From contig NC_087245.1 in assembly GCF_037042905.1 (NCBI RefSeq), positions 15,192,001 to 15,256,000 of the forward strand: a stretch of DNA of 64,000 bases. The letters are read 5' to 3'. The notes beneath the pieces are model-generated. The model was not told the origin of the DNA, did no database searches, and saw only the letters and a program-made list of their open reading frames with translations. The translations under genes and the position numbers were made by a program. The DNA is from Lytechinus pictus. Taxonomy: Eukaryota. Shown here in pieces: positions 6,163 through 64,000 of the stretch (the first letter of the stretch is position 1; the number at the start of each line of letters is the position of its first letter).

Positions 6163-6242
6163 ATGGGTCGTGCAATATACGTATCTCTTCTTCTTTTGAT
6201 GGTGCTTGGTGTCATCGAGGCTCACGTCACCTACAAAAGGCG
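6163..6242 (+). CDS. Mucin exon 1: signal peptide
   Basis: Kozak-like [33 protein letters not shown]; donor CG|gtatgt, phase 2. Confidence 0.85.
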
Positions 6243-40400: not shown

Positions 40401-43400
40401 TTTCCTTTTTTTTTCTGTTCAGTCTTTCTTCTTTTCTTTGTCTTAGTCTTTTTCTTTTCTTTTTTTAAATTTATTTTTCTGTTTTTCGATATATATATTT
40501 TTTACTTATTTCTTTTTTCCTTTTCTCTCTTTGTTTAATTTCGCTTTTGTTTTTATTGCAATTGAGAATTTCGTTCATAGATTTTTTTCTGTTACATATT
40601 GTACTAGCCTGGCGGCAGGGAATTTTGATACTGGGGGGGGGGGGGCAAGACAATAACAGACAAATCATTTCAATTAAGCAAGTAATGACCGGCCTAGAAT
40701 AGCTCTCCTCTTTATAAACACCATCCATGAGTGAGAAAAAATAATTAAAACACAATTTGTAAAGAAAAAAAAAGAGGAACGTTTTATGATCAAAAGCAGT
40801 AGTAGCGATATATAAATTGGCCGGGAGGGGGCTTTGGTCGTTGCAGACCAAAATCAGGGTTTGCCGATGGGAATTTCAATAGGGGTTGGGGGAGGAAGAC
40901 AACCAACAGTGAATTCATTTTAAGCAAAATAATGACCTATGGGACATTGCAAGAAACTTGCAATTGAACGCAAGTCAATTTCAAACTCCAAAATCAATTG
41001 AAAGTCTTACTTTTCATTGCAAACTTGCAACTGATTTATTGTTTCTTCCATCAATAAATCTATAAATTGGTTTACTTTAGATGAAATTAGTCTATCACTT
41101 GTAAATTTGCAACCGAATTTTGGGATTGACTGCAAATATTTTCTTGCAACACCCCATAGCTCTCTTTATAAAAAGTGGCCATAATTAAATAAGAAAATTA
41201 ATTTAAAAATAGAACAAAACTTTCAAGAAGGGGGGGGGGGCGTTACATAAAAAAACTGTATACCGTACAGATAGGAGAGGTGGTGTGCCGTTCAAATTAT
41301 ACCAAGAAACAAAAAGAGAAAAGAAAGGATGGTGAAATGTATAATTTTCTATTTAGTACGATACACATCTTGTTCATGCTCTTTAAAACTTGCATGTTTT
41401 AATTTCAAGATTTTTACGGTAAATGATGATTATATTCTTCCCTTTCGGTCCGTTGATATTAAGGTACAATAAAAACCCTTTTTATCAAATAAGATTTCAT
41501 TGACTCCTTTTATGTTTGCACTCAATGCATCAGATATAAATTTAGAAGGTAATATGTACAATTGTAAAATATAACAAATTAATGATATTGTATTTTAAGC
41601 ACTGGTTCAATAATATTTAAACACATATAGGCCTTTTACTTAATAAAGACAAATACAATTTAAAAGAATGCAACAGACCATGTTTGCCATCATGAGCGAA
41701 TGGGCCTGATTTGGGGAAGCTGCTCGCATAAAAGTCACAACTCAAAATTTTTAATAATTCTAATTTTTAATCTTTGATCTTTTTTTTCTTTAAATCTTCA
41801 GAATTATGTTATTGGGTAATGCAATTGGGCATACCATTCACCATTAACATAAATATCATTCATTAGGCACACACCACTAAGCCACAACTGCGTTACAATT
41901 ATCCAACAACTATCCATTAATTATACCACTATATAGGCACATACTACTGAGACACCATATTGGGCATATGGTATACCATTGATACAAATCATACCATTAC
42001 ACATATACCACTGAGACTATTGGATATCACTGAGACACCATTGGGTATATGGTATACCATTCACCATACCAATCATATCATTATAGAGGCACATACTACT
42101 GAGACACCATTGAATACCACTGCACTGAGACACCATTGGTATATGGTATACCATTCATCATACCAATCATACCATTAGAGCCACATATACTACTGAGAGT
42201 CTGAGACACCATTGTATACCACTGAGACACCATTGGGTATGGTATACCATTCATCATACCAATCATACCATTAGAGGCACATACTACTGAGACACCATTG
42301 TATACCACTGAGACACCATTGGTATATGGTATACCATTCACCATACAAATCATACCATTAGAGGCACATACTACTGATACACCATTGAATACCACTGAGA
42401 CACCGTTGGGTGTATGGTATACCATTCATCATACCAATCATACCATTAGAGGCACATACTACTGAGACACCATTGTATACCACTGAGACACCATTGGGTA
42501 TGGTATACCATTCATCATACCAATCATACCATTAGACACATACCACTGAGACACCATTGGGTATATGGTATACCATTTACCATTAAATAAACTACCACTT
42601 ACCATTAAGAACTTACCATTGAAACACCACTTAAATACCATTCGCGTACCATTTACCATTCAGATCACCATTCAACTACCATAAACTACCACTTACCATT
42701 AAAAACTTACCATTGAAACACCACTTAAATACCATTCGCGTACCATTTACCATTCAGATCACCATTCAACTACCATTCGCCACCATTCAAATACCATTGG
42801 CGATTTTTATAAGGGTGGATAGGCTAAAAAACTGAGGACCATCCAGTTTTCACCCTGTTTTGTCATATGTCCATGGATGTTTGGTGTAATCTAGTATATA
42901 TACATGTACAACCTTATCTTGAGAGACATTGTACTCTCACCCTTATCCACATTACATAGCTCCCACCACCACCACATACATAAACACACACACAGTCTTG
43001 TAATTTGTCAATTGGGGACTCACTTATCATTGATTGCCAAAGTGGGGACACGTGTTGGCGGTCTCATGCACTAAACAATTTGAATTTTATCCACTGACAA
43101 GCTCATTTTCGGACATACGTTTGCTCTTACCTTTTCAAAATAATTGTTTTTTTGTACATGATCATTTATTTGAAAAAAATGTCGTGGTGGATTTGTCATG
43201 GTTTTTTTAAATAGTTTTGTTTGAGGGACTCAAATGAAAATTTAATTGTGTTTATTGTCTTTTATTATGGTATATGAATATAGAAATAAAAAAAGATCAA
43301 GGTGATATCTTTTTTCTCAGCATACATGTGTAACTCTTGTCTTACTGTTTGTATTCAGTGAAAGAACTTTGTCTTCGCAGAATGAATGGTAATGATAATA

Positions 43401-46400: not shown

Positions 46401-49400
46401 TTTGAACTTCAGTGGAATCGAAATAACCTCTGTTGGATTTTACCTCATCTTGAAAATTCCTCTCATTGGCCTTGAAGTCCGATTTATACCTCTAGACAAC
46501 AATTATTTCAGCGTGGAGGTTCCTAGGGAACGCTTCTTTAACCTCACTGATGGTCTTTGTGGTGAGTTATTGGTCTATAATCTGAATTCCACTTTAAAGT
46601 AGTTACATGTAGGTATCACTTTTATTCTGATACAAGAAAGTGGTATGAAAATGAACTATTGAATGAACTATTTGAAGAAAAAAGGAAGTCTCATATCCAA
46701 GGGTAGCATCTCCAAATAGTTAAAAAATTCAAGCAGATTACCTTGCTCCACATTAACTTCTTACTCACATAATGGCTTTTAAAAATTTCTTTGTAAGAAT
46801 AAAAAAAAATGATTCTGTTGCTTTCAATGGTGTAGACATAAGAATCATAAATTTATTAAATGACCTGTCTGAGTGTCTCAAATTGTATTATTCTTAGGTA
46901 GAAAGTATTTACAAGTAGTAAATAAAACAAACCTAATTATATTAATGATCAATTCTTCCAACAGCGGTTTTGAATTTTGTCTTCAGAATGTATTCACATA
47001 AAGATGGCTAACTTCTTTAGGATTACATAGCAAGCCATGATACATTGTGCAGTGTACTTTTTATGGAAAATGAATTGTCAAGAAAAGAATCCTGTCATGC
47101 ACTGACCTTTATTTTATGTTTTTTTTTTACTACAGGTAATTGTGGTCATAATGAGACAACATGCGAAGAGGATAGTGATTGCTGCGACTTGATACCCCCT
47201 GAGTATAGTAAAGATTGTGGATGTGATGAAATAATTACTCCATGCCCTCCTACCGATGACAGTCGTAAGTGGTGTAATCATCTCTATGATCCTGTCTTTG
47301 AAGAGTGCCATGCTGTCGTTGACCCTGACCCGTTCTTTCATGACTGCGTATATGACGATTGCTTTGCTAATGACACAACATGCTTTGCTTTTGAAGCCTA
47401 CGCCACTGTGTGCGCTAATCATGGCATTTGCCTAGAATGGAGGAGTGACGACTTGTGTCGTAAGTTTTGATAACCTTTTGATTATCTCTTTCAGACTTTG
47501 CTCTACATGTAAATTTTGCATCCTTGTATATCACATTGCTCCCTTTTTTAGTCTAGTTTGGTGGTCAAACCCCCTGTATTACCCCTTGTTTTTACCTTAT
47601 TAGTTTTGTTATGGCTTGGAAGTACAGCTGCAACACATTCCTTTACAATATATTTGTTTCAATATCCTAGACATAGTTCAGTTTGCTATTAGATTTTTAT
47701 ACATCCTTTGAAATGTCATTAGACCACCTATAACACTGTTATGAATTTTAGTGATATGGCTCACTGTCACAGGGAGCTGAAATCCAGAATATATTTATTG
47801 CATTCACATGCTAATGTTGTTGCTGAATTTTATGGTACATATACCATTATCATTTTTTATTTCACTCAGCAGTTTTCCCTCTTACAAAGGGTTATCGACT
47901 CTTGTGCCATGATGATACTCCCTTGTTTCATATCTCTATGTCTTGAGCATCCTCGTTCAGACCCAACCTTACTACTGTCCCCCTTCTCTGTATTTTCCAA
48001 GTAATATTTGGTTTTCTTTTCCTTGTATGCTCTCTATACTTGCAGATCCCATGCTCTTTTCACAAGTTTGTCATCGTTCCTCCTTAGGACATTGCCCATC
48101 TATTTCAAACAACTTCTCTTCAACCCCCTCCTAAACAGTTTCCTCCATGCCCAAGCTTTCTGTGAGCTCATTTGTGTTCTTTCTATTATAAAGAATACAA
48201 CTTGTGTCTAAAGTGCCCAACAAATCTTGAGTATCATGGTCATGTAATATTTTCCAGTGCTGCATGTCAGATCATTAGCATAAATGACTGCTTTGATAGT
48301 TTTACACAAAGGAACATTACATGTGTCAAATTTTTCTTCATTTGATGTGTGATCAAGTTATTCACATAAGAATTAATTGAAACCAATGCTGATGTTTCTC
48401 CCATTATAATTTTGTCTGTCCAAATTACAGCCATGGACTGTGTCGAACCTTTTGAGTATCGCCAGTGTGTGTGTCCTGATGATGAACATCCTTCCTGCGA
48501 GTTATTTGATCCTGGAGAAATGATGTGTGGAACTGAGCCTGTTAGTGGCTGCTTCTGTCCTGAAGGCACCATGCCTGTTTCAAACGATACCTGTGTGCCG
48601 TGTCGTAAGTATTCTCAATGTTTTATTATTATCAAGGATTCGGTCATTTACTTGGCAGTAAAGTTAGAAAATATCAAATACAATAAGAAGGAAAATGGTA
48701 TACATCCACAGTTAGAGCAAAAGGGATAGAAATCAATTCTCTGAAGCTATGGAATTGATCGTAGTTGTTGGTGAATCGTCCTGTAGTTTAGGCATGTACC
48801 CAGAATGGAGAAATGAATGTAGAAAAATACTTTCAAGGATGTAAAATGGAGTTCAAAGAATTTGAAATAAGGCAGACGTTTCAGCAATCTTCCTACCTGA
48901 TCATGTGCATTCTTCCCAATTTTTTTTACCAGCCTCCAAATTTTACAGTACCCATTGATGAACTTTGGCATGGACTGAAAATATGGGGTCATTATTATTT
49001 TTTTAGAAAGTAGAATCATATACTAAAACCCTTTTTAATTGGATTTTTATATTTCTTTAGCTTCAACTACTCCGATCTATACAACATCTGAGTATTTCTC
49101 CACAACCCAAAAGCAAACAACATTTTTTACAACCACTTCAGAAACTACTTTTGAGACAACCTCACAAACAACATCAACAAGCCCAACTACAACCATCCCA
49201 ACAACAACTATAGGAGTAACGACAGAAAGTATTACTACAACAAATCCTACAACAACTATAGCGTCAACTACTCCTACTTTAACAACGACAGAAGGTTTAA
49301 CTACATTACCTGAAACAACAAAATCAGCCACAACTACTGAAACAACAACAGAAAATGTAAGCACAACAAATCCTACAACAACTATGAAATTAACTACTCC

Positions 49401-52400
49401 TACTTTAACAACTACAGAAGGTTTAACTACATTACCTGAAACAACAAAATCAGCCACAACTACTGAAGCAACAACAGAAAATGTAAGCACAACAAATCCT
49501 ACAACAACTATAGCGTCAACTACTCCTACTTTAACAACGACAGAAGGTTTAACTACATTACCTGAAACAACAAAATCAGCCACAACTACTGAAGCAACAA
49601 CAGAAAATGTAAGCACAACAAATCCTACAACAACTATAGCGTCAACTACTCCTACTTTAACAACGACAGAAGGTTTAACTACATTACCTGAAACAACAAA
49701 ATCAGCCACAACTACTGAAGCAACAACAGAAAATGTTAGCACAACAAATCCAATGACAACTATGGAATCAACTACTCATACTTTAGCAACTACGGAAGGT
49801 TTGACTACATTACCTGAAACAACAAAATCAGCCACAACTACTGAGACAACAACAGAAAATGTTAGCACAACAAATCCTACTACAACTACCACATTAACTA
49901 CTCCTACTTTTACAACTACAGAAAGTTTAACTACATTACCTGAAACAACAAAATCAGCCACAACTACTGAAGCAACAACAGAAAATGTAAGCACAACAAA
50001 TCCTACGACAACTATGGAATTAACTACTCCTACTTTAACAACTACAGAAGGTTTAACTACATTACCTGAAACAACAAAATCAGCCACAACTACTGAAACA
50101 ACAACAGAAAATGTTAGCACAACAAATCCTACGACAACTATGGAATTAACTACTCCTACTTTAACAACTACAGAAGGTTTAACTACATTACCTGAAACAA
50201 CAAAATCAGCCACAACTACTGAAGCAACAACAGAAAATGTAAGCACAACAAATCCTACGACAACTATGGAATTAACTACTCCTACTTTAACAACTACAGA
50301 AGGTTTGACTACTTTACCCGAAACAACAAAATCAGCTACAACTAATGAGGCAACTACATTTGCTTCTACAAAACCTACAACTATGTTTGAAACAACAGCT
50401 GAAGAATCAACATCTGCCACAACTGAATCACTTGAAACAACCACTGAATTCTCCACAACACCTACCACATCACTTCCTACCACAATTCCTCAAGAAACTA
50501 CTTTTTATGAAACCACCACTGAAATTACATCAGAAACCACAGAAACAACTGAGGAAAGGACAACATTGTCTGAAACTACCACCAGGGAAACTGCAACTGG
50601 TGAAGAAACAACTGAGTCTGGAATTGCCACATCACTTTCTACAACATCTTCACATTCCTCTTCTCCCCTTACAACAACAACAACAACACCATTACAGACA
50701 AAAGAAATGTCCACACATTTGCCATTCGAAACAACACCAATGGAAACAACAAAGGAGGGGTTAACAACACAAATGGTAACAAAATCACAGACAACATCTC
50801 AGACCACTCGGGAAGAGACCACAGCAGAAGAAACGACAGAATCAGCAACTACCTCAGAAACTGTATCAACAGTAGGAACAACTGCTTGGGAGGCAACAAC
50901 TGCATCGGAGTCTGGAACCACAACACCCCTGTCGACAACAAAAGTGGGCTCTACTGGTGTTACTACTGATCAAACAATGGAAACTACATCGGTATCATAT
51001 ACTAGTGAAGAAACAACCGCAGCAGCAACAACAATGGCTACTACTTCACAAACAACCATCATGACTAGTTCAGGTACCATCATCAGTCACAAGAGGCCGC
51101 TATCACACATCATACCATCAATCATTCCGATATCATCTCAATCATAAGCAGATACGACTGAAGCAGGCATCTTATGATGCTTGGCATGTTTAGGGACCTG
51201 TATCATTTAACAAAGTGATATATGATGGGGCTGATTTTATGATTGGTCATGCATGATAATGAATGTGATCAATCATAGATATTAGCCCTACATGTATGAT
51301 CAATTGCCAAGCTTTACGTTACAGGCCCTGGGACCCGTTTGCATAAAAAATACTATTGCGGTAACCTTGCCATCCAATAGTGACTACCATGGTAACGCTG
51401 ATCAACAGCCAATCAAAAACAAGGATTCCATGCAAGATACCATTGGATGGCAAAGTTACCATAATGCAATGGGGCCCAGGTCTCCATATACATCCTCAGA
51501 CCTAGTGTTACCAACAATCTCTTGTTATGATGAACTCTACTGAAGTGTAGAATAGAGATATTTTCTCATTCAAGAGATAACTGTTGTGTTAATCACTGAG
51601 AGCAGTTTTTCGATTCAAATTCTCCATTAAAGTAAACCAAAACTTTATGGTTCTATAAATTGTTGCATTCATTTCTTAAAAAAAAGGTGCAAAATGTCAG
51701 GCCTACATGCATTATATCCATTGCAAATTTTGATACAGTATGTTTTCATCATGGTTTTATCTGTACATGGAGGTGTTGGGGCATCCATTTGACATCAATA
51801 TTTTGTTGGCATTGCAATTCATTGTAAAGCCCTCACCAGTCACATTCCCACCACTGTGTCAGTCGACACATGGTATTTCATCTTGAATCAGCCATCTGAC
51901 TTGGATGAGTATTTGTACCGAACACAAATTGAATACCATTATCCCAAGGTGCGAGTGAAGCAACGACCGATGTAAACCAACCAAGCAGATACACTTTTCA
52001 CACCAGCGAACAGACTCAAGCAACCGATGTCATTACAGGTAGCGCGTCTAGTACGGATACGTTCACGGATGCAGTTACCCGACCTGACTGTTGCGATGGG
52101 GAGTGCACAGAAGGTGAATGATCACCATCTTCATCATCCGGATGCAACAATGTAATCAACATCAGCATCATGTTCATCATCATCATCGTAATCAAGTTTG
52201 CATTTTTTCCCCTTCAGTATCCCCGTACCTCCTGTTCAACATTGAAGCATAATCATGTCGACAACTTTCGTACTGAATAACATCAATCAATTCTCACAAT
52301 GCCTAATCGCAACACATCATGGCCACACAACATATTTTCTTTTCTTTGTGCAAAGAAACATATCCCTCATTGATGAGAAGTGTAATTTGTAGGAATTCTT

Positions 52401-52803
52401 CACAACCTGCCTCCTACCATTCTCCAAACATATCGTGTGTAACGTACTAAGATTCAACATTGTCACAGCATAGCATTTCTCATTTTCTCACTCATATAAC
52501 TGTTGGGTTTTTTTTACGTATCGTGATTAGCATCACTCAAGTATTACATGTTCACAAATACTTTCATCCCTCAAAAACGAAACGTAATGTGATTCTTTGT
52601 TCTTTATATCTCGCTTATTTGATTATTTTAATTGAGTTATTTGAGAATCAAAACTGCATTGCCCTAGCATAAGAAATAGCATATAAATGGATGTAACATC
52701 TCATTATTAGTATCTCTAACTGTAAATATGTTAATGGTATTAATTGCTGGTAAAGTGAAATTTTTTTATCACAGCTATGTAATAGTTAATGACATATTTT
52801 TCC

Positions 52804-52864
<61 letters not shown>

Positions 52865-55800
52865 TGATTACATATTGTACTCTTAGTATGTATGTATGTA
52901 TTTTCTTCTTCTTCTTCTTCTCCTTCTTCTTCTTCTTATTATTATTATTATCATCATTATTAATATTATTATTATCATTGTTATTATCATTGTTATTATT
53001 GTGATTATTATCATCATTAATATCATTTTTATAATGGTAATATGTACAATATTTTATTTTGTATAATAAATTGATTGAGCCTGTCAAAGTTTCATTTGTC
53101 AATTTGTCTATTATTACAGCTACTCCAACTGTACCCACTACACCCGTTATTACTACACCTCCTGAGACTACAACTGGTAAGTTGTCCTTGCATTGTTACC
53201 TTGGCAACGTAACCCTAAACCATTGTCTACTGAATCCTGTCATTCCCATAGGTTTTGTATAAATGAATCACCCATTTTTATGAGGCAATGGTGTGGTGTC
53301 TTTGCTGCCTACTTCATTAATTATATTGGATGTGTTGATACAAGTTTAATGTGTTTGAATGCATGTTACTATTTCATTGAACATCAAGATCTGTTGATTA
53401 AAGTGTTGGACAAATCTGTATGATGTTGTTAGTTTGTCTATGCAATATTTTCAAGACTTTATTTTCCTCACTTGTTATTAGAAGTTTGACGTCCATAGAC
53501 ATCTGTGTCAGCATTTCATGCATTTATCATTGCTACATGTACATATATTGCATATGACACGTGTGTTTGTGTCATACACATAATAAATATTCCAAATCAT
53601 TCTGTTGTCCATTATATATGTGATGAATGTGTTTGAATAATACCTGATAATCTTGTATAATGAATGATGTTTATTTTTTTGTAGCCCTTTCATATGGTTC
53701 TCTTTTCTATCTTGATGAATCTGTTGAATCAAATTATAATGTATTATGATTTACATAAAACTCACCAATTTGATTTAAATAACACTACTAATCCATTATC
53801 TTTGCTTACCATTCTCATGATATTGCCAGAAAGCATTAAAAAAAAATGATTGAAGTTTGAGAAGCCCTTATAACTCTATTATATATGTACCATATGGGTC
53901 TTATGGGTGAACGATGTAATGGTGTATCTGCAATCGTTCCTCTACCCTTGTGCGCGTACGTACGAGTATCGTCGTAACCAATCAGCCAAGTCGGATGATA
54001 CAATACATTTGCCATACTCATTGTTCATACATGGTGTTTCATCTCACGACCATGATGTCATAGTCTTCAACCAATGACGTCTCTTTATATCATATCAGGT
54101 AACATTATTTCATGTTCATTTTCAATTTTGCATTTCGTTATGTATTCAGATATTACATGTTGGTCACAGTCTATCATTGTTGTGAAGAGTTTACTCCATA
54201 TCAGCATGCATTTCCTCATATGCCCTCCTGAAAATATGAATATATTTTGTTTCAAATTTAGCTTGAATGTACACATATTTATCCTTGTGAAGTATATCTG
54301 GTATATTTTGTAGTTATTTGAATATAGATCTAGATTTATGATATCATGAATCCCTCCAAACTGATTTTCAAATAAATAATAAATGTTTGGAAATTAAAAT
54401 TGAATTATTTTTTAGTAAATTTGCATTTGTTATATAACATTGCATTAAGGTTCATAAGTTAGTATTCATTGTCCAAATAAATAATTAGAGTAAAGCAGAC
54501 TTAAGCAGACCAAATTAGACTAAAGCAATTGAAATAGATATATGAATTTTTACTTCCCCCGCTTTTATGGGAGGATTATATTGGATTGTTGTCCATGATA
54601 TTACATATTATCAGTGTGTAATATTTTGTTTTCAGTTGTGATATAGAGTCAAAATGATAATGCTTCAAACATTATCCACAGGAATTGCTTGTAAAGACCA
54701 TGTAGGCCCAGAGACCCATTTAAGAATAAAGTATGTATCTAGTACATATCTTTTACATTGTATTTTAATTTCCTTTTTTATCTCAAACTCTTCTCCTGTC
54801 CTATTTGGATGAAATTTCATGATGCCAGGTAGTGCTCTGGATTTATTGTGCATTAGTGACTTTGGCATGTTAGTTCATTATAATCATAGTTCCAAACCTC
54901 TTGGCCAACAGGCGAGTGTGACACAGTTGAAGTATGCGAGTGGACATCATGGTGCGATGATGAGGCTCAAACTGGGGACAAAATAACGGGTGGAGACGGT
55001 GGTGAATACGAGCTTATTGAGACCTGCCGAGAACTCAACCATGATGTCTGCAAAGCTCCAATTGATATCGAGTGTGAGACTGCCTTTCCTCCTTATTATA
55101 GCGCCCAAGAGCTGGGTCAATCACTGACCTGCGATAAGGATACTGGTCTGGAGTGTTTATTTTCTGAGGAGCAACCTCTGTGTTTTGATTACAGAATAAG
55201 GTCAGTCTCTATCCCATAACCAAATGGAAGGCTTTATTTTTCTCATGAATTAAACCCATTTGCATATTTTTTTTTCAGTAAATAAAATAGTACAATGTTC
55301 ATTCAATATTGTTTCATCACTCTCTTTGATCTGATCAGTAAATAAAAAAATAGTACAATGTGTGTATTCGATATTGCTTCATCACTATCTTTGATCTGAT
55401 AGGAATTATTCATCAATGACAATAAAACTATACTGATACCTTTTCATCCATCTCTTATGGATCCTTGTGATTCTTAGATTTCTCTGTTGCCACAATGTTG
55501 TCAGTGATCCCAACTGCCTTACGACATCTTCAACAGCTCCACCTACCACACATGAAACAACTACCACATCTACCAAGCCAACTGAAACTGTACCTACAAC
55601 ATCCACCACCAAGACAATCAGGACTACAAATTCAGGTAACGTCTTGATTATCAAGTTTGTTCATTCATCCAGCAATAAAATTGGACATGTTATCCACAAG
55701 GTCTGTTTTAAAACTAGAAGAGAAACATATTACATCAACTGCAAAGTGTTGATGACAGCAAAAAATTGTCAAATAGGTTTAATCCAACAAATCCTATTGG

Positions 55801-57717
55801 TTAACTACAATTTCAATGCTTTGCAGCTTTGTTGCGTAATTTTGGCAATCTTGTGAATAATTTGCCATGAGAACCGAAATGAATGCTTGGTTCTCAAGAG
55901 GCAACAGCATCTGGTTCCTTGCATGTGTTTAGATTTAAGAGGTCAAGTAGATGAATTACCACATCTTTTATTCATTTATTTATTTGAACAATATTTCAAT
56001 AGGGTGCCCTTTCAGCAAAAGCTGGTATCAAAAGGGGCCCTAAAAGCATAAAAACAAAACAAGTATATACAAATGATGAAAATATACAAAGTAAATATGT
56101 TATATATATATATATACTTTAATATTAGAATTTAAAAAAAGGCATAAAAAGTTGGAATCATTAAAAAAAGTTGGGACCCAAGAACCATTAATAGTTTAAC
56201 ATTTGCCGGACATAATATATGATTTGAGTTTTTTTTTTAACTAGAGAGGGTGGTTAAGGTTATCAAATGAAGGGGTAAGGAATTAAACATTGATATTGAG
56301 GAGATATCATGTTTATAACACTTGTACCTAGTCTTACAAAATAGTGTATATTCAATCAGAATAACTACTGTAAGGGGGTGGGGGTGGCTATCACAAACAT
56401 TTAAATGTGACTGTAATTGCCATTAAAATCATATTCATGTATTACTGAGAGTACACAGTGGGTGTGCGGTATTGCATAGTCTTAACTCCGGTTTGCCATT
56501 TTGTGTGTTTTGGCATTTAAGCATGACTTTAAGTCAGACTTAACTCTTTTGTGAAACAGGTCCCAAGTTTTAAGTTTGGTTTTCATCTGTCTCTTATCCT
56601 CTCTTACAGGTGTGAAAAACCCAACACTGCCGGCAGTCACATACCCTACCCATAGCTCGTGCGGGACGGTACAGGGGAAAGCACCTGCCATCATATCATA
56701 TAATAACTGTACTTCTCCAGACCCTATCTATCTCAATGAATGTCAAGGAAAGTGCTCTTCATCCCATTCGTTTACTCAGGTTAGTGCAATCATTTTTCAT
56801 TATAGACTTTGCAAAATGATGTGTTGTTCAAGGCTCTGTACTAAGAGTTGCACTTGATCCGATCAACCACAACTATGAGCAGCCAGCAACTTCAACGTCT
56901 AAAGTGCAAGTTTGTTAAAAATATTTTCTAGCTAAGATGTATATTGAATTTCATACATTCATTGTTCTCTTGAAAATTCATTTTGGTTCTCTTTGTTTAC
57001 TATTAAGGACATTGTGCAAATACCCTGTAGAAATTATTATGGTACATGGGTAGATTTCCATACATTTGAGATCGTTTGGATCAGTTGTAACTATTTGTAA
57101 GAGAGGGCCCAGGTATTGGACATTCTTGTCCTATCAGTAGAGTTTTTGTTATTTTTATTTGGGTTTGACAATTTTGCAGAAACAAGTTGAATATGGTATT
57201 TTGCAAGGTGATATGGCTACGTAACATAGTAAAGATCATTCCAATGTTACTGGAAATTTTAGCTTTTCTCAGGCAATTTTGTTTTCTTTCCTTTTGCAAT
57301 ATTCTATTATTGTTTATCAAAGTGCCTATCATAATCATTGATTCAGATATTATCAGAATAATCATTACAATTCCTTTTAACCATCCATATTTTAATTTTT
57401 TTTAATTTGGATATATTGAGATATGATGAAAAGCTTCCTCAGTAATTTACCTGACTGAAAAATTTGCTTATTGTAAGTGACTTAACGTAAGATAATGCCT
57501 TTGATGTCTGTACATGCTTCACACAATATCTCAATTTGCTGTCTATAATTGTTTTCAGATCATAGATGGCCAGATGATAATGGATCAGTACTGTTCATGC
57601 TGTAGACCGGAGAGTATTATTGAAGATGTCGTTGAGCTTGAATGCCCTGATGGAACAACAACATTGATCAATGTTCCCTTTATTCAATCTTGCATATGTA
57701 ATGAAGTAGAATGCTAG
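6163..57717 (+). CDS. Gel-forming mucin-like gene (MUC2/MUC5/VWF family), 32 predicted coding exons, about 2640 aa
   Basis: Hand-spliced GT-AG exons join in frame (summed length 7926 nt including stop). Four VWD domains with C8 and TIL units, PTS repeats, a WxxW CysD and an 11-Cys cystine knot. Confidence 0.92.
9885..10090. repeat. Palindromic MITE-like segment
   Basis: ttacccaatattgggtaaaa and gcatgcatg mirrored at both ends. Confidence 0.65.
10793..10848 (+). CDS. Mucin exon 2
   Basis: ttcattttccag acceptor, gtaagt donor; (R)[18 protein letters not shown]; phase 2 to 1 fits both neighbours. Confidence 0.75.
12634..12782. mobile_element. 149-bp MITE with TAG...CTA termini and 9-bp TSD
   Basis: 21-bp perfect TIR tagcctcttgtcgaggccctg; TSD ccttgctac on both sides. 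Confidence 0.9.
13159..13257 (+). CDS. Mucin exon 3: N-terminal linker with RRAAR
   Basis: ctacag acceptor, gtaagt donor; [33 protein letters not shown]. Confidence 0.75.
14395..14584 (+). CDS. Mucin exon 4: VWD1 start
   Basis: [33 protein letters not shown], a typical VWD N-terminus; absent from the ORF track. Confidence 0.92.
14887..15168. mobile_element. hAT-like MITE remnant
   Basis: Ends cagtggtgta ... tacgccagtg with an internal poly-G tract; no intact TSD. Confidence 0.45.
17005..17354 (+). CDS. Mucin exon 5: VWD1 C-terminal half
   Basis: [18 protein letters not shown]...FGLSWK; ccag acceptor, gtaagg donor. Confidence 0.92.
17883..18031 (+). CDS. Mucin exon 6: D1 linker and C8 start
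   Basis: DPAYCPDV...[15 protein letters not shown]; gtcagt donor. Confidence 0.88.
18351..18528 (+). CDS. Mucin exon 7: C8-1
   Basis: [18 protein letters not shown]...[17 protein letters not shown]...WRSLDFC. Confidence 0.92.
18966..19212 (+). CDS. Mucin exon 8: TIL1 and E1
   Basis: [19 protein letters not shown]...[10 protein letters not shown]...[13 protein letters not shown]. Confidence 0.92.
19364..20439. mobile_element. Non-autonomous Tc1/mariner (pogo/Tc2-like) element
   Basis: TIR ccgtacgtaacggactataaaccgcacc versus ggtgcggttaatagaccgttacttacgg; TA on both sides. Confidence 0.85.
20957..21003 (+). CDS. Mucin exon 9: end of E1 module
   Basis: 47-nt exon (C)[15 protein letters not shown]; ttgcag acceptor, gt donor; phase 2 to 1. 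Confidence 0.88.
21701..22014 (+). CDS. Mucin exon 10: VWD2
   Basis: [33 protein letters not shown]; gtgagt donor. Confidence 0.92.
22454..22598 (+). CDS. Mucin exon 11: VWD2
   Basis: NGLTILFDG...[18 protein letters not shown]. Confidence 0.92.
23198..23362 (+). CDS. Mucin exon 12: end of VWD2 and C8-2 start
   Basis: [13 protein letters not shown]...DPCDLY...ECNRL. Confidence 0.9.
23937..24104 (+). CDS. Mucin exon 13: C8-2
   Basis: [21 protein letters not shown]...[23 protein letters not shown]. Confidence 0.92.
24628..24871 (+). CDS. Mucin exon 14: TIL2 and E2
   Basis: [22 protein letters not shown]...[10 protein letters not shown]. Confidence 0.92.
25288..25575 (+). CDS. Mucin exon 15: D' (TIL' and E')
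   Basis: [20 protein letters not shown]...CFGGCEC...CPCHHGG. Confidence 0.92.
26356..26402 (+). CDS. Mucin exon 16: end of E'
   Basis: 47-nt exon (C)[15 protein letters not shown]; same size and phase as exon 9. Confidence 0.88.
27200..27400 (+). CDS. Mucin exon 17: VWD3 start with GDPH
   Basis: [30 protein letters not shown]...[14 protein letters not shown]. Confidence 0.93.
28349..28533 (+). CDS. Mucin exon 18: VWD3 middle
   Basis: [22 protein letters not shown]. Confidence 0.9.
29702..29809 (+). CDS. Mucin exon 19: VWD3 end
   Basis: [22 protein letters not shown]...DFGNSWK; phase 0 at both ends. Confidence 0.92.
29880..30300 (+). repeat. Degenerate (GGTAA)n microsatellite in intron 19
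   Basis: Many ggtaa and aggtaag units. Confidence 0.9.
30891..31176 (+). CDS. Mucin exon 20: C8-3
   Basis: [17 protein letters not shown]...[26 protein letters not shown]...WRSNEFC, the characteristic D3 motif. Confidence 0.95.
31640..32690. repeat. Left subterminal ACCATT/ACACC minisatellite
   Basis: Degenerate caccattcaccatac units that switch to the AATGGT orientation near 32560. Confidence 0.9.
33540..34108. mobile_element. TIR element nested in the large insertion
   Basis: ggcgtgtttctacatagaatcgttaaaa is an imperfect inverted repeat of ttttaatgattttctgtagaaacatgcc. Confidence 0.6.
35163..35312 (+). mobile_element. tRNA-derived SINE
   Basis: A-box-like gtagtctagtgg and B-box-like ggtttgaatcc, followed by non-tRNA body sequence. 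Confidence 0.7.
36489..36912. mobile_element. Foldback PIF/Harbinger-like MITE
   Basis: ggcccgaattca...tgaattcgggcc, with nearly the whole element self-complementary; 3-bp TSD aat. Confidence 0.9.
36998..37411. mobile_element. Harbinger-like MITE
   Basis: TIR taccgtgtttacacttaatcggcttt versus aaagccgatcaagtgtaaacacggta; internal gccgattctgcatcggc repeats. Confidence 0.8.
40941..41155. mobile_element. MITE
   Basis: gggacattgcaagaaa versus tttcttgcaacacccc. Confidence 0.65.
41830..42800. repeat. Right subterminal tandem repeats (about 87-95 bp units, plus a roughly 94-bp duplication)
   Basis: actgagacaccattg...tggtataccattca...gaggcacatact repeated about 7 times. Confidence 0.9.
43448..43876 (+). 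CDS. Mucin exon 21: TIL3 plus short PTS
   Basis: [13 protein letters not shown]...[10 protein letters not shown]...[11 protein letters not shown]...; phase 1 at both ends. Confidence 0.92.
45892..46130 (+). CDS. Mucin exon 22: VWD4 start with GDPH
   Basis: [32 protein letters not shown]. Confidence 0.92.
46360..46561 (+). CDS. Mucin exon 23: VWD4
   Basis: SHMVSVND...[18 protein letters not shown]. Confidence 0.9.
47136..47459 (+). CDS. Mucin exon 24: C8-4
   Basis: [22 protein letters not shown]...[26 protein letters not shown]. Confidence 0.92.
48431..48604 (+). CDS. Mucin exon 25: TIL4
   Basis: [12 protein letters not shown]...[10 protein letters not shown]...CVPC. Confidence 0.9.
49061..51073 (+). 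CDS. Mucin exon 26: large Thr/Ser/Glu-rich PTS exon
   Basis: tttctttag acceptor; 2013-nt open frame. The donor CAG|gtacca is weak, so the 3' boundary is uncertain. Confidence 0.88.
49237..50360 (+). repeat. Coding tandem repeat, 126 bp (42 aa), about 9 copies
   Basis: Unit TTNPTTT(IAS/MEL)[25 protein letters not shown](A/T)TTENVS; aatcctacaaca recurs every 126 bp. Confidence 0.95.
51327..51480. mobile_element. Palindromic MITE
   Basis: cctgggacccgtttgcat versus atgcaatggggcccagg; internal ggtaaccttgccatccaat versus attggatggcaaagttacc. Confidence 0.7.
51949..52113 (+). CDS. Candidate mucin exon 27 (Thr-rich, ends [11 protein letters not shown])
   Basis: 165-nt open exon with phase 1 at both ends, cccaag acceptor, gtgaat donor; more GC-rich than its flanks. 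Confidence 0.6.
52808..53025. repeat. Compound microsatellite (TA)n, (CTT)n, (ATT/ATC)n
   Basis: Directly visible in the sequence. Confidence 0.95.
53120..53176 (+). CDS. Mucin exon 28: mini PTS
   Basis: [18 protein letters not shown]; ttacag acceptor, gtaagt donor. Confidence 0.8.
54912..55200 (+). CDS. Mucin exon 29: CysD (WxxW) domain
   Basis: CEWTSWCDD...[10 protein letters not shown]...[11 protein letters not shown]...[15 protein letters not shown]...CFDYRIR; absent from the ORF track. Confidence 0.92.
55478..55635 (+). CDS. Mucin exon 30: CysD end (RFLCC) plus PTS
   Basis: Completes the CysD YxIRxxCC motif; donor TCAG|gtaac, phase 1. Confidence 0.9.
56610..56779 (+). CDS. Mucin exon 31: cystine knot N-terminal half
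   Basis: SCGTV...[20 protein letters not shown]. Confidence 0.9.
57559..57717 (+). CDS. Mucin exon 32: cystine knot C-terminal half and stop
   Basis: YCSCCRP...LECPDG...[11 protein letters not shown] followed by TAG. Confidence 0.92.
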   Translation: MIDGQMIMDQYCSCCRPESIIEDVVELECPDGTTTLINVPFIQSCICNEVEC

Positions 57718-58325
57718 AGCTACATACATGTAGTGTAGCCTCCTCTACAGTAGGCACAAATGGATTGTAAAGACTCAAACAATAAGTACATGGATAGTTG
57801 AATGTCGTGTTGCCTGACCTATTGCCATGTTTGGATTCTTCCATTGAGGTCAAAAGGTCAAGATTTTGTTCTAACTGCTCTCATTCTTTTATTTCTGAAT
57901 CAATTATGTTCATACTTGGTACATAATATGATCCTTGGGTTATACCACATGTGTGTTTATGAGGATGATGGGGCTACAGGTCATCTAGGGGCCATAAGGT
58001 CAAATGATATGAGTTTATGTTCATCCTGTTTCATTTTTTTGTTCAACTTGCTCTCATTTAAATTGTGTTTATGCTTGGTACAAATAATCTTTGGGTAATA
58101 CCACTCGAGGACAATAAGGTCAGAGGTCATCTAGGCGTCAAAAGATCATATTGCATATGTTATTAATTGCGAAATCAGGTGAAACTCGTGGTTCGTGATT
58201 TACCTTGTCTATCAGAGCAGCTGTTATGCCTGCACTGCATTGCATAAAGAAAAATTTTCTTACATTGTAAGATTTGTTTCTGGAAATACCCTTTGTAATC
58301 CCTCTTAGATTCAAATGCAAATGAA

Positions 58326-58365
<40 letters not shown>

Positions 58366-58699
58366 AATAGTGGTAGTAAAATGCAAACTGCGATTGGCTA
58401 AATTGGTACCATGTGACCTCCCTTCAAAAAGTAAAGTTATATTGTACATATATCTTTTGATTTTTGGAGGGTAAAGCCCGTGTTAAATGAATGGGGGGAA
58501 TAATGGCAATGCGCATTTAGCCAAGAAGCCCTGCTCGTCAGCATTTACTAAACGCGTACAATGTGTTGAATCTTAATTTTTATAGTGACGTCACCTTTTC
58601 CTGACCCGTGCTATGGTGGTATGTGTGCAACGGTACAAATAATTGACGTTCAGCCTCCCATTTGCTCACGTAGAAGGTGTTGTACAATTTACTTTGATA

Positions 58700-58888
58700 A
58701 ATAGTGAATGCTCTATTATACAATACATGTATTACTGGACAATATGAACTCCAAATATAAAATTATACCTCGTGCAGGTCTATTTCACCTCGGCCTTCGG
58801 CCTCTGTGAAATAGGCCTGCACTCTGAATAATTGTATATTTGTTGTACATATAATCCAGTATATTGTACAATAGATTGTACACTATTT
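58700..58888. repeat. Long imperfect palindrome in the putative 3' UTR
   Basis: Arms tgcaggtctatttcac and gtgaaataggcctgca surround cggccttcggcc; outer arms also pair. Confidence 0.7.
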
Positions 58889-58890
58889 TG

Positions 58891-58926
<36 letters not shown>

Positions 58927-59028
58927 TATATTATATCAATAGGGCTATGATTATTTGTGTGTAGATGACTGATGTTTTTTTTAATACTTTCACTCTGAAT
59001 TTTTCATTTTCCTTCACAAGAGACAGTA

Positions 59029-59034
59029 AATAAA
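59029..59034 (+). terminator. Candidate polyadenylation signal
   Basis: AATAAA followed by a T/GT-rich tract, about 1.3 kb after the stop codon. Confidence 0.35.
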
Positions 59035-60137
59035 ATCTTATTTTCTTATCTTGTGTTGTATTTTAGTCTTATCTTCAAGAAGGTCTTTAAAATAATCCCA
59101 AAATTCATTGCAGTGATCATAGTTCTTGAATCAAAATATGCATCACAGTTCATGGTCATGAAAATCTGAACTAGTCAATAATTTTGTTTTTGGTTCCTTC
59201 AAAGCACAGGACAAGTGTATTGGAAGACCTTTGGAAAGTCCAGACTATAAAGCTGACAAAATGTCAGTAGCTTTAATCATTGGTATAATTTGTTTAAATT
59301 ATTTGACTGATCATTACCATGGTAACTAATTATACATTTATACAGTAAGAATTACATGTAGGTCCTACATGGACATACCATACATGTCCATATGTTTGTG
59401 TGTTTTTGTTGTTGCTTGTTTTAGTAAAAATTGGACTGGATTTAATCAACATACAATTTATAAATCATAAAATTATCAAAGTAACATAAATTTTATCTAC
59501 ATTGATACAAATGTCTAAAAGCCTATGTGTTCTTGAACGTTTATAAAATATGCCACCTGCCAGCAGGTATGGTCAGTGGTTAATATGTTTAAACATGCTG
59601 GGAAAACAAATTGACGCTGGTGAAAATAGATGATTCTTTAGAACAACTTTTCAGTGAAAATAGATATCTGTTATTTAAAATGTATTGAAATATATCGCAA
59701 TGATTTTTTTTGTAATTACATGTTTATTCATCCATTTATGGCATGATGATTTTGTGTTCTTGTAAATTTTTTGTTCAGAGAGAAGAATGTAAACCACTTT
59801 CATATTACACTATGGTAATAGTATTTTACATGTCAATTAAAATGAAATGTATCCCAAAGTTTTTAGAATGTTGTTTGATTCAGAATTGTACCGTGTGATT
59901 TATTCATGAATCAATTGCAATATGATCCAAAGTGATACAATGTATAATACTGAGAACAAGATAAAAAAAAAAAGGAGAAGGGGTGTGTGTGAATATGTGT
60001 GTGGAGAGAGAGAGAAGAAGAGAGAAAGCTGATACATAAGCTGATAAATAGGCATAAGCTGATATATTTTGTTAAGGTGAAACCTAGCTTTTTAAAACAT
60101 GATAATACTCTAATGCAAAACTCGTTTCATCCTGCAG

Positions 60138-60485
60138 AGTGTGTTGAAAAAGACACTTGGCATTGTACCTGGACAATATGGTTTAATATTCATTCAACGC
60201 AAATGCAATCTGAGAGTGCTCCAGCGGAGGAAGTTGAACTTCTTGCAGACGCCCGGCACAACCCTGACTTCCCCGAAGATTGCTCAGAGCCGCAGGATAT
60301 TCAGTGCAGGACTGTAGACACACATGAGTTGTGGAATGAAACTGCTGATGCTGCTACCGTTGACGTTAGTACAGGTCTTCGCTGTATTAATATACCTGGT
60401 ACGCCACATTGTCTCGACTATGAATGTTCCTATTTGTGCTGCATTCGGGAAGTTGTCACTTGCTCAACACCCTCGACCACAAAAG
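60138..60485 (+). CDS. Downstream CysD exon, copy A
   Basis: cctgcag acceptor, gtaggc donor, phase 1 at both ends; CTWTIWFN...CSEPQDIQCRT...GLRC...CLDYECSYLCC. Confidence 0.88.
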
Positions 60486-61325
60486 GTAGGCACATCAAAT
60501 ATTTTCACTAATTCCTGGCCGTGTGACCACTATCACTGTACATATGCATTTTAAATGTGTTGTTAGTAAAAAAAAGACGGCAATGTTCATCTTATTCTTG
60601 AAGCTTATGTGTTGTTGTGACATGGAAGTTAGGAATAAAGATACAATTTAAAGCTCTCTTTAAGACAAATTTGATATCTGTTTTTTTGAAAATATTTTTT
60701 GAAAAGAAGGATTCTAAGAAAATGTTGCTCTTGTTGTCAATATCCATGTCAGATACATGTATAGTCCTCAAGGTTATTCAGTTTTGTTTGAATTTCATTC
60801 TCAAACAAGTTAATTGGAGAACCTGTACACAATTTCATTGAATTTACCTGTTGTAATGGAATATTTCATTAATATTATGAGTGGTGAAAATGGAATAAAA
60901 AACAAATGAAATGTCTTTTCTAAAGGAGAAATGTCAGAGGAGCATGTCTGAAAGATGGACAGGATGGGACAAACAGGATAGTTTTGAATTGTAAAGAAAA
61001 GACTGTAATCCCATACAGAGATTTCAGTTTTGTCTCACACATGTAGGTACTGTCATGGTAAGGACTTGCTCAATTAAATAAAAAATAATTTGTCAGATTT
61101 CTTTTTAAGTAAACTTTAAATTTTTCTCTTTTTTATTGGATGATTACAAACATACTATTCTGTTACCATGGTTGATTTCCTTTTAATCAGAACATCTTAA
61201 CAAAAACAAAACAAAGGATAGCCCTAATTAAGATGCAACTTATTTTCAAGCAGAATTTTGTCATGTTTTATCCATTATAATAATGTACATGTACACCTTG
61301 TTATTCTTTATATGTATGAATCTAG

Positions 61326-61798
61326 GAACAACACCTGGAACAACTCTTGAAACAACAGGAACAACAACTGGAACCACTCCAGGAACAACAACAGGCACCA
61401 CAACAGGAACAACAACTGGACCCAGCCCTTCAGAATCAACAACAGGAACAACAACTGGAACCACTCCAGGAACAACAACAGGCACCACAACAGGAACAAC
61501 AACTGGACCCGGCCCTTCAGAATCAACAACAGGCACCACAACAGGAACAACAACTGGAACCACTCCAGGAACAACAACAGGCACCACAACAGGAACAACA
61601 ACTGGACCCGGCCCTTCAGAACCAACAACAGGTACCACAACAGGAACAACAACTGGAACAACTCCAGAAACAACAACAGGTACTACAACAGGAACAACAA
61701 CAGGAACAACAACTGGAACCACTCCAGAAACAACTCCAGGCACCACAACAGGTACAACACAGGAAACAATATCTGACACCACTCCAGAATATGGATGA
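61326..61798 (+). CDS. Downstream Gly/Thr-rich PTS exon (GTTT repeats); 3' end uncertain
   Basis: tctag acceptor, phase 1. Weak ACAG|gtac donors near 61631, 61679 and 61751, or read-through to TGA at 61798. Confidence 0.75.
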
Positions 61799-63030
61799 TA
61801 TATAAATTGCAGCAGACACAGTTAGGTCAAGGTTGTGGGAAAAGGACCAACTCTTTTAAATGCTTGGTTTTTCTTTTAGGGTACAAGGGAAGGGTAAAGT
61901 GTCAGAGATGAGACCCTATCTCTCAAAATCATGGGGATGTGGTCACCCTTCCTGCCCTTCCTTTTGTGTCACCGATTTCATATCACCAGCCAGAAAGGAG
62001 ATGGACAGATGATCATCTTTGAAAAGTCAGTTCGTTGTTCCATTCTCTGCAGGATCAGAATAAGGTCATTTGAACTCAAATGGCATGGTGATTTAATATT
62101 CAATTAGATAAGCGCCAACTTTGATGCCTTGATCATTCTATTCTTTTGAATCAGACTTTCATTAGATCCACCAGAAGCAACAATGAGTCCATGAGCGATT
62201 GGTATTTAAAAGTTGGCCAAGTACATTTGAATAGCAACATGCTAATGCATTGAAAGTAGAATTGCAACAAATACCTTTATCAAGTGTCTATTGATATGTT
62301 ATTCTACTCAAAAGGTCTATTTAATTTCTGCTTGCTGTGTCAGAAATATTTCGATATTATAATCTTGCTTTGAAATTTTGTCCTTATGAAAGAAAGGAAA
62401 GGCCAATTGTATAAACTTGCCCATGAGGTTAAAAGGAACTTGTCTATTGCAGAAATGATAATTTCTAGTTTGGTAGTGAATGTTGATTCACTAATTGATA
62501 GTTTTGATTATATGGGTTGGTGTAGTAAATGGTTACCCGAGGGGAAGAAATTCCTCAAATGCTTAGGGCCTAGGCAGCCCAGCTAAAAGTGAGGTAATGA
62601 TACCATCATCATGTTTAGCAGGGCCAACTGGGAGAACATTTTTGGCAACTGAAGAGGCCACCCCTGGTCGATTTGTTGTTGATATTATTGTTATCATCAA
62701 TTATCAATATTGTGTGTTCTCATGAAGGCAGCTGAATTTCTGTAAGTATTTATTTCATTTATATACATAGATGGACTTTAGTTTTATTTACATGTATATT
62801 ACCTTTCTAGGAAATTTCTTATGTTGTTGTTGTTGTTGTTATTCTAATTGGTGTAAAATGAATTGCTTCACCAACGGTCTCTGAAAATTAACGACAATTG
62901 TCAAACTTCTACAACTACTTCTAAAACTTGCTTTTACTACTCCATTTTATTTCACTATTACCACTTAAAGTGACTTTAGTCAATTTTTTTTTCAAAATGT
63001 AATGCTAATCCATGCCCATTTGTTCTGCAG

Positions 63031-63396
63031 AATGTGTTGAAAAAGACACTTGGCATTGTACCTGGACAATATGGTTTAATATTCATTCTACGCAAATGCA
63101 ATCTGAGAGTGCTCCAGCGGAGGAAGTTGAACTTCTTGCAGACGCCCGACACAACCCTGACTTCCCCGAAGATTGCTCAGAGCCGCAGGATATTCAATGC
63201 AGGACTGTAGACACACATGTGTTGTGGAATGAAACTGCTGATGCTGCTACCGTTGACGTTAGTACAGGTCTTCGCTGTATTAACATACCTGGAACGCCAC
63301 ATTGTCTCGACTATGAATGTTCCTATTTATGCTGCATTCGGGAAGTTGTCACTTGCTCAACACCGTCAACCACTACGGGAGAAACCACCACAGAAG
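63031..63396 (+). CDS. Downstream CysD exon, copy B
   Basis: Near-identical to copy A apart from one E-to-V change in the domain and a slightly longer Thr tail; same splice sites. Confidence 0.88.
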
Positions 63397-64000
63397 GTAG
63401 GCACATCAATCAAATATTTTCACTAATTCCTGGCTGTGTGACCTCTATCACTGTATACATGCATTTTAACCGTGTTGTTAGTAGAAAAACAGGTGTGTTG
63501 TTGTGACATGGAGATTAGGGATAAAGGTAAAATTTAAAGTTCTCTATAAGACAAATTCGATCTCTGTTTTTATTTTTAATATTTTTGGAAAAAAAGGATT
63601 CTAAGAAAGTGTTGCTCTTGTTGTCAATATCCATGTCAGATATAGTCCTTAAGGTTATTGAGTTTTGTTTAAATTTCATTCTCAAACAAGTTAATTGGAG
63701 AACCTGTACACTATTTCAGTGAACTGTTATTATGGAATATTTCATTAATATTATGAGTAGTGAGAATGGAATGAAACACAAATAAAATGTCATTTCAAAA
63801 GGAGTATTGTCAGAGGAGCGTGTCTGTGAAAGATTTACAGGATGGGAAAAATAGTAAGATAGTTTTAGATTGTAAAGAAAAGACTGTAATCCCATACAGA
63901 GATTGCAGTTTTGTCTCATACATGTAGGTAATGTCATTGAGATACATGGTAAGGACTTGCTCAATTAAATAAAAATAATTTGACAGATTTCTTTTAAACT

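Follow-up and report, generated by a model that had tools for sequence, protein, structure and literature searches.

The window analysed here, a stretch of 64,000 nucleotides of Lytechinus pictus DNA, contains one complete gel-forming mucin gene on the forward strand, which extends from a signal-peptide exon at 6163 to a stop codon at 57717. Further mucin exons follow on the same strand from 60138 onwards. The question raised by this locus is whether these exons belong to the gene upstream, as an alternative 3' end, or to something else.

The mucin gene and its knot-ended tail

The exons of the gene are 85–100% identical, exon by exon, to those of the L. variegatus mucin-2-like protein (XP_041476428.1, XP_041476436.1 and XP_041476443.1). 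The first coding exon (6163–6242), which carries the signal peptide and ends in phase 2, matches the N-terminus of XP_041476436.1 with 92% identity. The exons at 14397–48604 encode the VWD1-3 assemblies, a TIL domain, a short Pro/Thr/Ser (PTS) region and a VWD4-C8-TIL unit; they gave ordered tblastn matches (77–100%) to L. variegatus isoform X1, and Pfam recognised VWD and C8 in the fourth unit. In a model with two tails, this part would be the 5' half common to both. It is followed by a PTS cassette exon of 671 codons (49061–51073) with a 126-nt repeat in 8.9 copies, a second cassette exon (51949–52113) and a 57-nt mini PTS exon (53120–53176), whose donor at 53176 has the top score among the 30 donors of the gene. 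The short tail starts with a type A CysD domain encoded by two exons (54912–55200 and 55478–55635; Pfam, E = 6.9e-15) and ends with two cystine-knot exons (56610–56779 and 57559–57717; Pfam Cys_knot, E = 4.9e-6 on the second). The knot contains 11 Cys, four in the first exon and seven in the second, as many as that of the L. variegatus orthologue, and is closed by TAG at 57715–57717; the complete knot and stop reported in the sequence-only reading of this DNA were thus confirmed at the same coordinates.

The gene encodes a signal peptide with N-terminal VWD-C8-TIL units, a large Pro/Thr/Ser repeat and an 11-Cys C-terminal knot, and by this predicted domain content its product is a member of the gel-forming mucin family. 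The N-terminal part of the assignment is based on the match of the exon chain to L. variegatus isoform X1, whose cluster representative has VWD, C8 and TIL domains. Three L. variegatus isoforms (1911, 2454 and 2506 aa) differ in the inclusion of the two cassette exons: 49061–51073 is skipped in isoform X3 and 51949–52113 is present only in isoform X1. Since both internal cassettes are variable in that species, the length of the short-form mucin is already tuned by splicing.

The introns contain several repeated elements. Within the 12-kb intron, two foldback elements (36485–36916 and 36998–37411; about 430 and 410 bases long) lie side by side and are likely MITE-type insertions, and degenerate satellite tracts are found in introns at 31644–32667, 41914–42776 and 29904–30284, the first two flanking the 12-kb intron.

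The exons downstream of the stop codon

The CysD, PTS and CysD exons that had been noted at 60138, 61326 and 63031 are at those positions, and both CysD exons are intact, with open frames and AG/GT ends. The first CysD exon (60138–60485; Pfam, E = 1.4e-12; MUC5B CysD chain in the PDB, E = 5e-5) is the first and diverged unit of an array, and the exon at 63031–63396 is the second unit, also recognised by Pfam. Both match Mucin2_WxxW at about 1e-12, above the Pfam cut-off, and contain the WxxW motif and 10 Cys, one of which is shifted with respect to the family pattern. The only PDB matches were the CysD chains of MUC5B and MUC2. A predicted model (pLDDT 67) gave mucin chains in the top eight rows of a Foldseek search, none of them at E ≤ 0.001, and the Atlas search returned the CysD label only. 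We refer to this domain as type B; it is only 32% identical to type A. Between the two units lies a PTS exon of the array (61326–61751, 74% Pro/Thr/Ser) with a weak probable donor at 61751; without splicing at this donor the frame is open until a TGA at 61796–61798, and this read-through end is similar to the end of L. variegatus XP_041485715.1.

The cysteine pattern of type B is peculiar. The family Cys before the D-V-x-T-G-L motif is missing and an extra Cys is present just after the DYE motif, so that 10 Cys are kept. The same shift is seen in L. variegatus XP_041485715.1, P0009 and P0107, which suggests, at the level of the sequence, a lineage-specific disulfide swap.

The two B units derive from a duplication that included the intron following each of them. 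Their exons differ in 9 of 113 codons, with 8 synonymous changes and 1 replacement (binomial P = 3e-5 against neutrality), whereas an alignment of the two following introns over 582 bases shows 53 differences (9%). This comparison argues that purifying selection acts on the exons, or did so until recent times; on this reading of the codons, they must be, or must recently have been, translated. The sequence 5' of the first unit differs from that 5' of the second, which is what one would expect where an array begins. That the downstream exons are what remains of a displaced array, now in decay, is extremely improbable. Spliced use of either CysD-B exon was not seen in four sequencing runs, as relics would predict, but the excess of synonymous changes, the intact splice sites and the 10 conserved Cys all speak against decay.

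The position of the array in homologous mucins

A profile-free search of 1.84 billion representative proteins gave as top match the Diadema setosum protein XP_072175733.1 (6382 residues), which has the same 5' half followed by 16 type-B CysD/PTS units, a type A CysD and a knot. The D. antillarum protein XP_071493566.1 has the same plan with 39 type-B units. These two were the full-length homologues found with CysD-B, and both show the order VWD1-4, mini PTS, array, CysD-A and knot; a fragment from S. purpuratus also has type B immediately before type A. The long Diadema mucins resemble the window in the family of their signal peptide, in VWD1-4, in the mini PTS, in the presence of both A and B CysD domains and in the 11-Cys knot. 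Moreover, the residues just before the first B unit in both proteins resemble those of the mini-exon 53120–53176. The arrangement is nevertheless different: in Diadema the array is internal and capped by CysD-A and knot, whereas in the window CysD-A and knot stand between the mini-exon and the array. From the Diadema order, the ancestral join would correspond to 53176 with 60138, which is in frame, and not to 55635 with 60138. Judging from these homologues, the normal place of the array would be inside the protein, with the mini-exon leading into it and a CysD-A and knot of its own closing it.

The L. variegatus mucin-2-like protein is an orthologue of the gene and shares with it the short knot-ended tail and the spliced internal PTS cassettes. 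All three of its isoforms are short and have the same knot end, and no listed isoform contains CysD-B. In this species a CysD-B array is found in a separate model, XP_041485715.1, with a CysD 64% identical to that of the window; this array may differ from the one described here. Among 120 listed of 1514 matches (30–3509 aa), those from L. variegatus were only the orthologue and one distant paralogue, a partial model without the fourth VWD, and no second 5' half was found there. Long relatives of the L. variegatus array were not found between 1191 and 3400 aa, which is weak evidence, and metagenome scans gave no matches. In Diadema there are three paralogues of tandem type, and every one of them possesses a 5' half. 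In the third of these (P0243 and P0113; both models without the C-terminus) the CysD array is replaced by as many as six copies of the VWD4-C8-TIL unit.

The relationships among the tails were analysed with trees. Lytechinus CysD-A is 55–58% identical to the CysD-A that caps the array in S. purpuratus, and the latter is 69% identical to that of Diadema. A tree forcing the Lytechinus and S. purpuratus CysD-A together was rejected (AU p = 0.031, 111 columns), for a hypothesis drawn from an earlier tree and therefore formed after the first comparison. P0099, whose tail ends like that of the window, was neither shown nor rejected to group with Lytechinus CysD-A (p = 0.35). These comparisons suggest the existence of two paralogous tails and would predict a second CysD-A and knot beyond 64000, although fast evolution in Lytechinus could mimic this signal. 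In the VWD4 tree, which is unresolved, the best topology places the gene of Lytechinus together with the long one of D. setosum, at an unstarred support of 73/88. A separate tree of the N-terminal half came from a quick search, and its topology may be shaped by concerted evolution among the Diadema copies.

RNA evidence

We compared 4 of the 21 listed runs over positions 53040–64000, and one of the four (X2) expresses the gene. X2 is guessed to be RNA and is clearly spliced, while the kind of material in run X1 is not on record. The assembled contigs show presence and not absence: of the 49 joints, 15 were displayed, records can be lost to a filter, and holes prove nothing.

In X2, a single contig with a depth of 240 contains the GT-AG joints 53176 to 54912, 55200 to 55478, 55635 to 56610 and 56779 to 57559. 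The shared upstream exon is thus joined in RNA to the proximal terminal exons, and the short, knot-capped mRNA is real. The depth in the bin of the mini-exon is wholly explained by this contig (38.7 = 239.8 × 59/366). No joint into 60138 was present among the 15 of 49 joints displayed for 4 of the 21 runs, and the depth over 59994–60359, the bin with most of the exon at 60138, was 0 in both X1 and X2. The raw RNA runs X19 and X21, of which about 6% was read, gave zero depth over the exons of this gene and for this reason carry no information. The downstream exons are a real feature in an odd arrangement, and the one informative RNA sample shows the short form only.

Run X1 contained unspliced pieces at 59122–59954 (depth 2.4) and over most of 61480–64000 (depth 10–17), with almost no depth in the mini-exon bin (0.34). 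Such pieces fit multi-copy array DNA, nuclear RNA or internal oligo-dT priming. At a loose end at 61698, an array-like PTS runs straight into another CysD variant; neither this variant nor the junction motif is present in the 64-kb window. Together with P0001 and P0107, the sequence of this junction points to several type-B variants in Lytechinus-like urchins. Short high-copy repeats, with depths of hundreds to thousands, are located at 56839–57020 in the knot intron and at 57850–58170 in the 3' UTR.

The region between 57717 and 60138

The 3' UTR of the short form starts at 57718 and reaches at least 59698, as deduced from the X2 contigs 57555–58311, 58377–58874 and 58937–59698 together with bin arithmetic. 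These unspliced contigs have a constant depth of about 157 up to 59698, past an AATAAA at 59029, although contigs cannot show the end of an RNA. The AATAAA at 59029 was considered as the main 3' end in X2 and rejected, because the depth is unchanged to 59698.

In the sequence-only reading, no signal-peptide exon was found between 57717 and 60138. This needs to be qualified, since a hydrophobic open frame of 20 codons, signal-peptide-like, starts with the ATG at 59261 and leads to a phase-1 donor at 59321; it is the sole frame in the gap that runs from an ATG to a phase-1 donor with a hydrophobic core and a good donor. In matched sequences, such a frame arose by chance at a rate of 1–8% for six of the seven thresholds applied and of 23% for the least strict one; the thresholds were picked after the candidate had been seen. 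Its G+C content (26%) is to be compared with 30% in the surrounding UTR and 38–48% in the coding exons of the gene, and its synonymous-codon score (-0.32) falls below the 5th percentile of coding samples (-0.09). A comparison of this frame with the promoter and first exon of the gene showed no similarity, 64 of 100 shuffles scoring as high. On visual inspection, neither a charged n-region nor a clear cleavage site can be made out in it, and X2 crosses it unspliced at a depth of 157. On its composition and codon use, the frame at 59261–59321 is probably a chance frame inside the UTR.

As to the continuity of the DNA, the window contains no N, and records with no or few differences span 57555–59954 except for two short (AT)n gaps. 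An assembly join, if there is one, must therefore lie in the roughly 180 bases that precede 60138. Positions 59963–60026 are taken up by a poly-A run and a GT/GA microsatellite, and no records bridging 59955–61479 were displayed. No breakpoint repeat common to the gap and the upstream introns was found except (AT)n.

A proposed 5' half with two 3' arms and its alternatives

A 5' half common to two 3' arms is the single most likely reading of the locus, and we assign it a probability of about 0.5; this and the other odds expressed here are a judgement and were not computed. The array exons show coding selection, exons under selection require a start codon and a signal peptide, and no VWD half fits in the 2.4-kb gap, so that a shared 5' half requires no new part. 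Against a switch stand the X2 sample with its short form only, the zero depth over 59994–60359 in X1 and X2, and the three L. variegatus isoforms, all of them short. The VWD-bearing half would be spliced to the short CysD and knot tail and, in other cells or stages, also to a second tail starting from 60138. In the short arm, 53176 would be joined to 54912 and then to the knot and the long UTR, with polyadenylation near 59.7–60.0 kb. In the long arm, the donor at 53176, or another upstream phase-1 donor, would skip the four exons at 54912–57717 and the poly(A) region and enter the array at 60138. The likely branch point is 53176, because the Diadema counterpart of the mini-exon leads straight into the array. 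A splice from 53176 to 60138 would rebuild a Diadema-type long mucin across an intron of 7.0 kb, in a gene that already contains one of 12.3 kb; given the order of the homologues and the selection on the exons, we consider the chances of this splice evenly balanced. Following the Diadema plan, the array is predicted to finish past 64000 with a CysD of its own and a second knot, and by this analogy the long form would likely carry its own knot. The fuller proposal, with two mutually exclusive knot-capped arms governed by one splice or poly(A) choice at 53176, and with tails that are old, so that other sea urchins may keep the switch, we hold somewhat more tentatively, at slightly under even odds. 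Both forms would dimerise via the knot and polymerise via the common N-terminus. The short form would have about 1,900–2,600 residues and one CysD cross-linking site, the long form several thousand residues and many such sites, with a consequent change of the gel mesh.

The alternative 3' end suggested by the sequence-only reading is thus retained, but its switch point is moved from 55635 to 53176, and its long form would likely gain a knot. In the version first suggested, the donor at 55635 would skip the two knot exons only and join 60138, with CysD-A preceding the array. The phase-1 donor and the reading frame of this join were correctly identified. Phase fit is however weak evidence, since among 11 exons checked from 48431 to 63396, seven proved to be symmetric modules of phase 1-1, and phase compatibility was rejected as evidence for a switch because any such module fits any other. 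In addition, the X2 contig passes from 55635 into 56610 unbroken, and in the homologues examined type A comes after the array and never before it. We regard this join as highly improbable.

Two other explanations carry more weight, although both are unlikely. The array may come from an adjacent paralogue that has no VWD half here, either because of an assembly join or because this haplotype recently underwent a deletion, in which case the two halves of the locus would belong to separate transcripts. The tandem-type paralogues of Diadema, each with its own 5' half, agree with this explanation, as do the lack of a displayed record across 59955–61479 and the poly-A and microsatellite tract located there; furthermore, the selection on the exons could predate a deletion. 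A join, however, would have to fall within the 180 bases left by the near-identical records, in a window without N and without a repeat, other than (AT)n, common to the gap and the upstream introns, and the second 5' half expected of a paralogue was not found for L. variegatus among the 120 matches listed, of up to 3509 aa. Slightly less probable still is that the array forms a secreted gene by itself, devoid of VWD domains, with its own promoter in or near the upstream 3' UTR and a leader at 59261–59321 or elsewhere. The rarity of the leader frame in matched sequences agrees with such a gene, and the unspliced X1 contig begins at 59122, 139 bases before the ATG. If X1 is RNA, its unspliced pieces over the array and its PTS-to-CysD junction, with almost no depth over the mini-exon, would fit better with a separate unit. 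On the other hand, that contig ends at a genomic A11 run and may thus reflect oligo-dT priming or plain DNA, while the candidate leader has the G+C content of the UTR, non-coding codon use and no likeness to the first exon of the gene; in X2 it is crossed without splicing, and its thresholds were set post hoc.

Comparison with known mucins and significance

MUC2, MUC5AC and MUC5B are described as sharing VWD-C8-TIL units, PTS regions, CysD domains and a C-terminal knot (PMC4948705, PMC3549977). CysD is reported to form non-covalent cross-links in MUC2 and so to set the pore size (PMC3195396). The gene in the window differs from these vertebrate gel-forming mucins in having a fourth VWD unit before the main PTS/CysD region and the knot directly after CysD-A. 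The properties of mucus are usually varied by different mucin genes or by repeat-length polymorphism. In mouse, Smgc has only the first exon in common with Muc19 and is not known to contain VWD domains or a knot. The mouse Muc19/Smgc locus gives two products, and Smgc is called a splice variant of Muc19 (PMC7815129). The two-arm model is different, since here the entire VWD half would be common and both forms would be knot-capped. In chicken, the splicing reported for MUC2 takes out part of the central PTS and does not exchange the tail (PMC3549977). An ectodermal 'mucin-2' has been localised in situ in L. pictus; in the relevant part of that work it is given by accession only and is not tied to this gene (PMC12516323). 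At the level of listings, neither an account of this locus nor a case of two knot-capped arms in one mucin appeared in the open-access literature.

Should no switch exist, the locus would still exemplify either an array that was displaced but stayed under selection, or a repetitive gene that traps annotation or assembly. If the switch is true, a swapped 3' arm that includes the knot would allow one gene to produce two polymer-competent mucins with an identical N-terminus, one with a single CysD and the other with many. This would provide a natural test of how the number of CysD domains affects the gel mesh, in an animal suited to embryo experiments.
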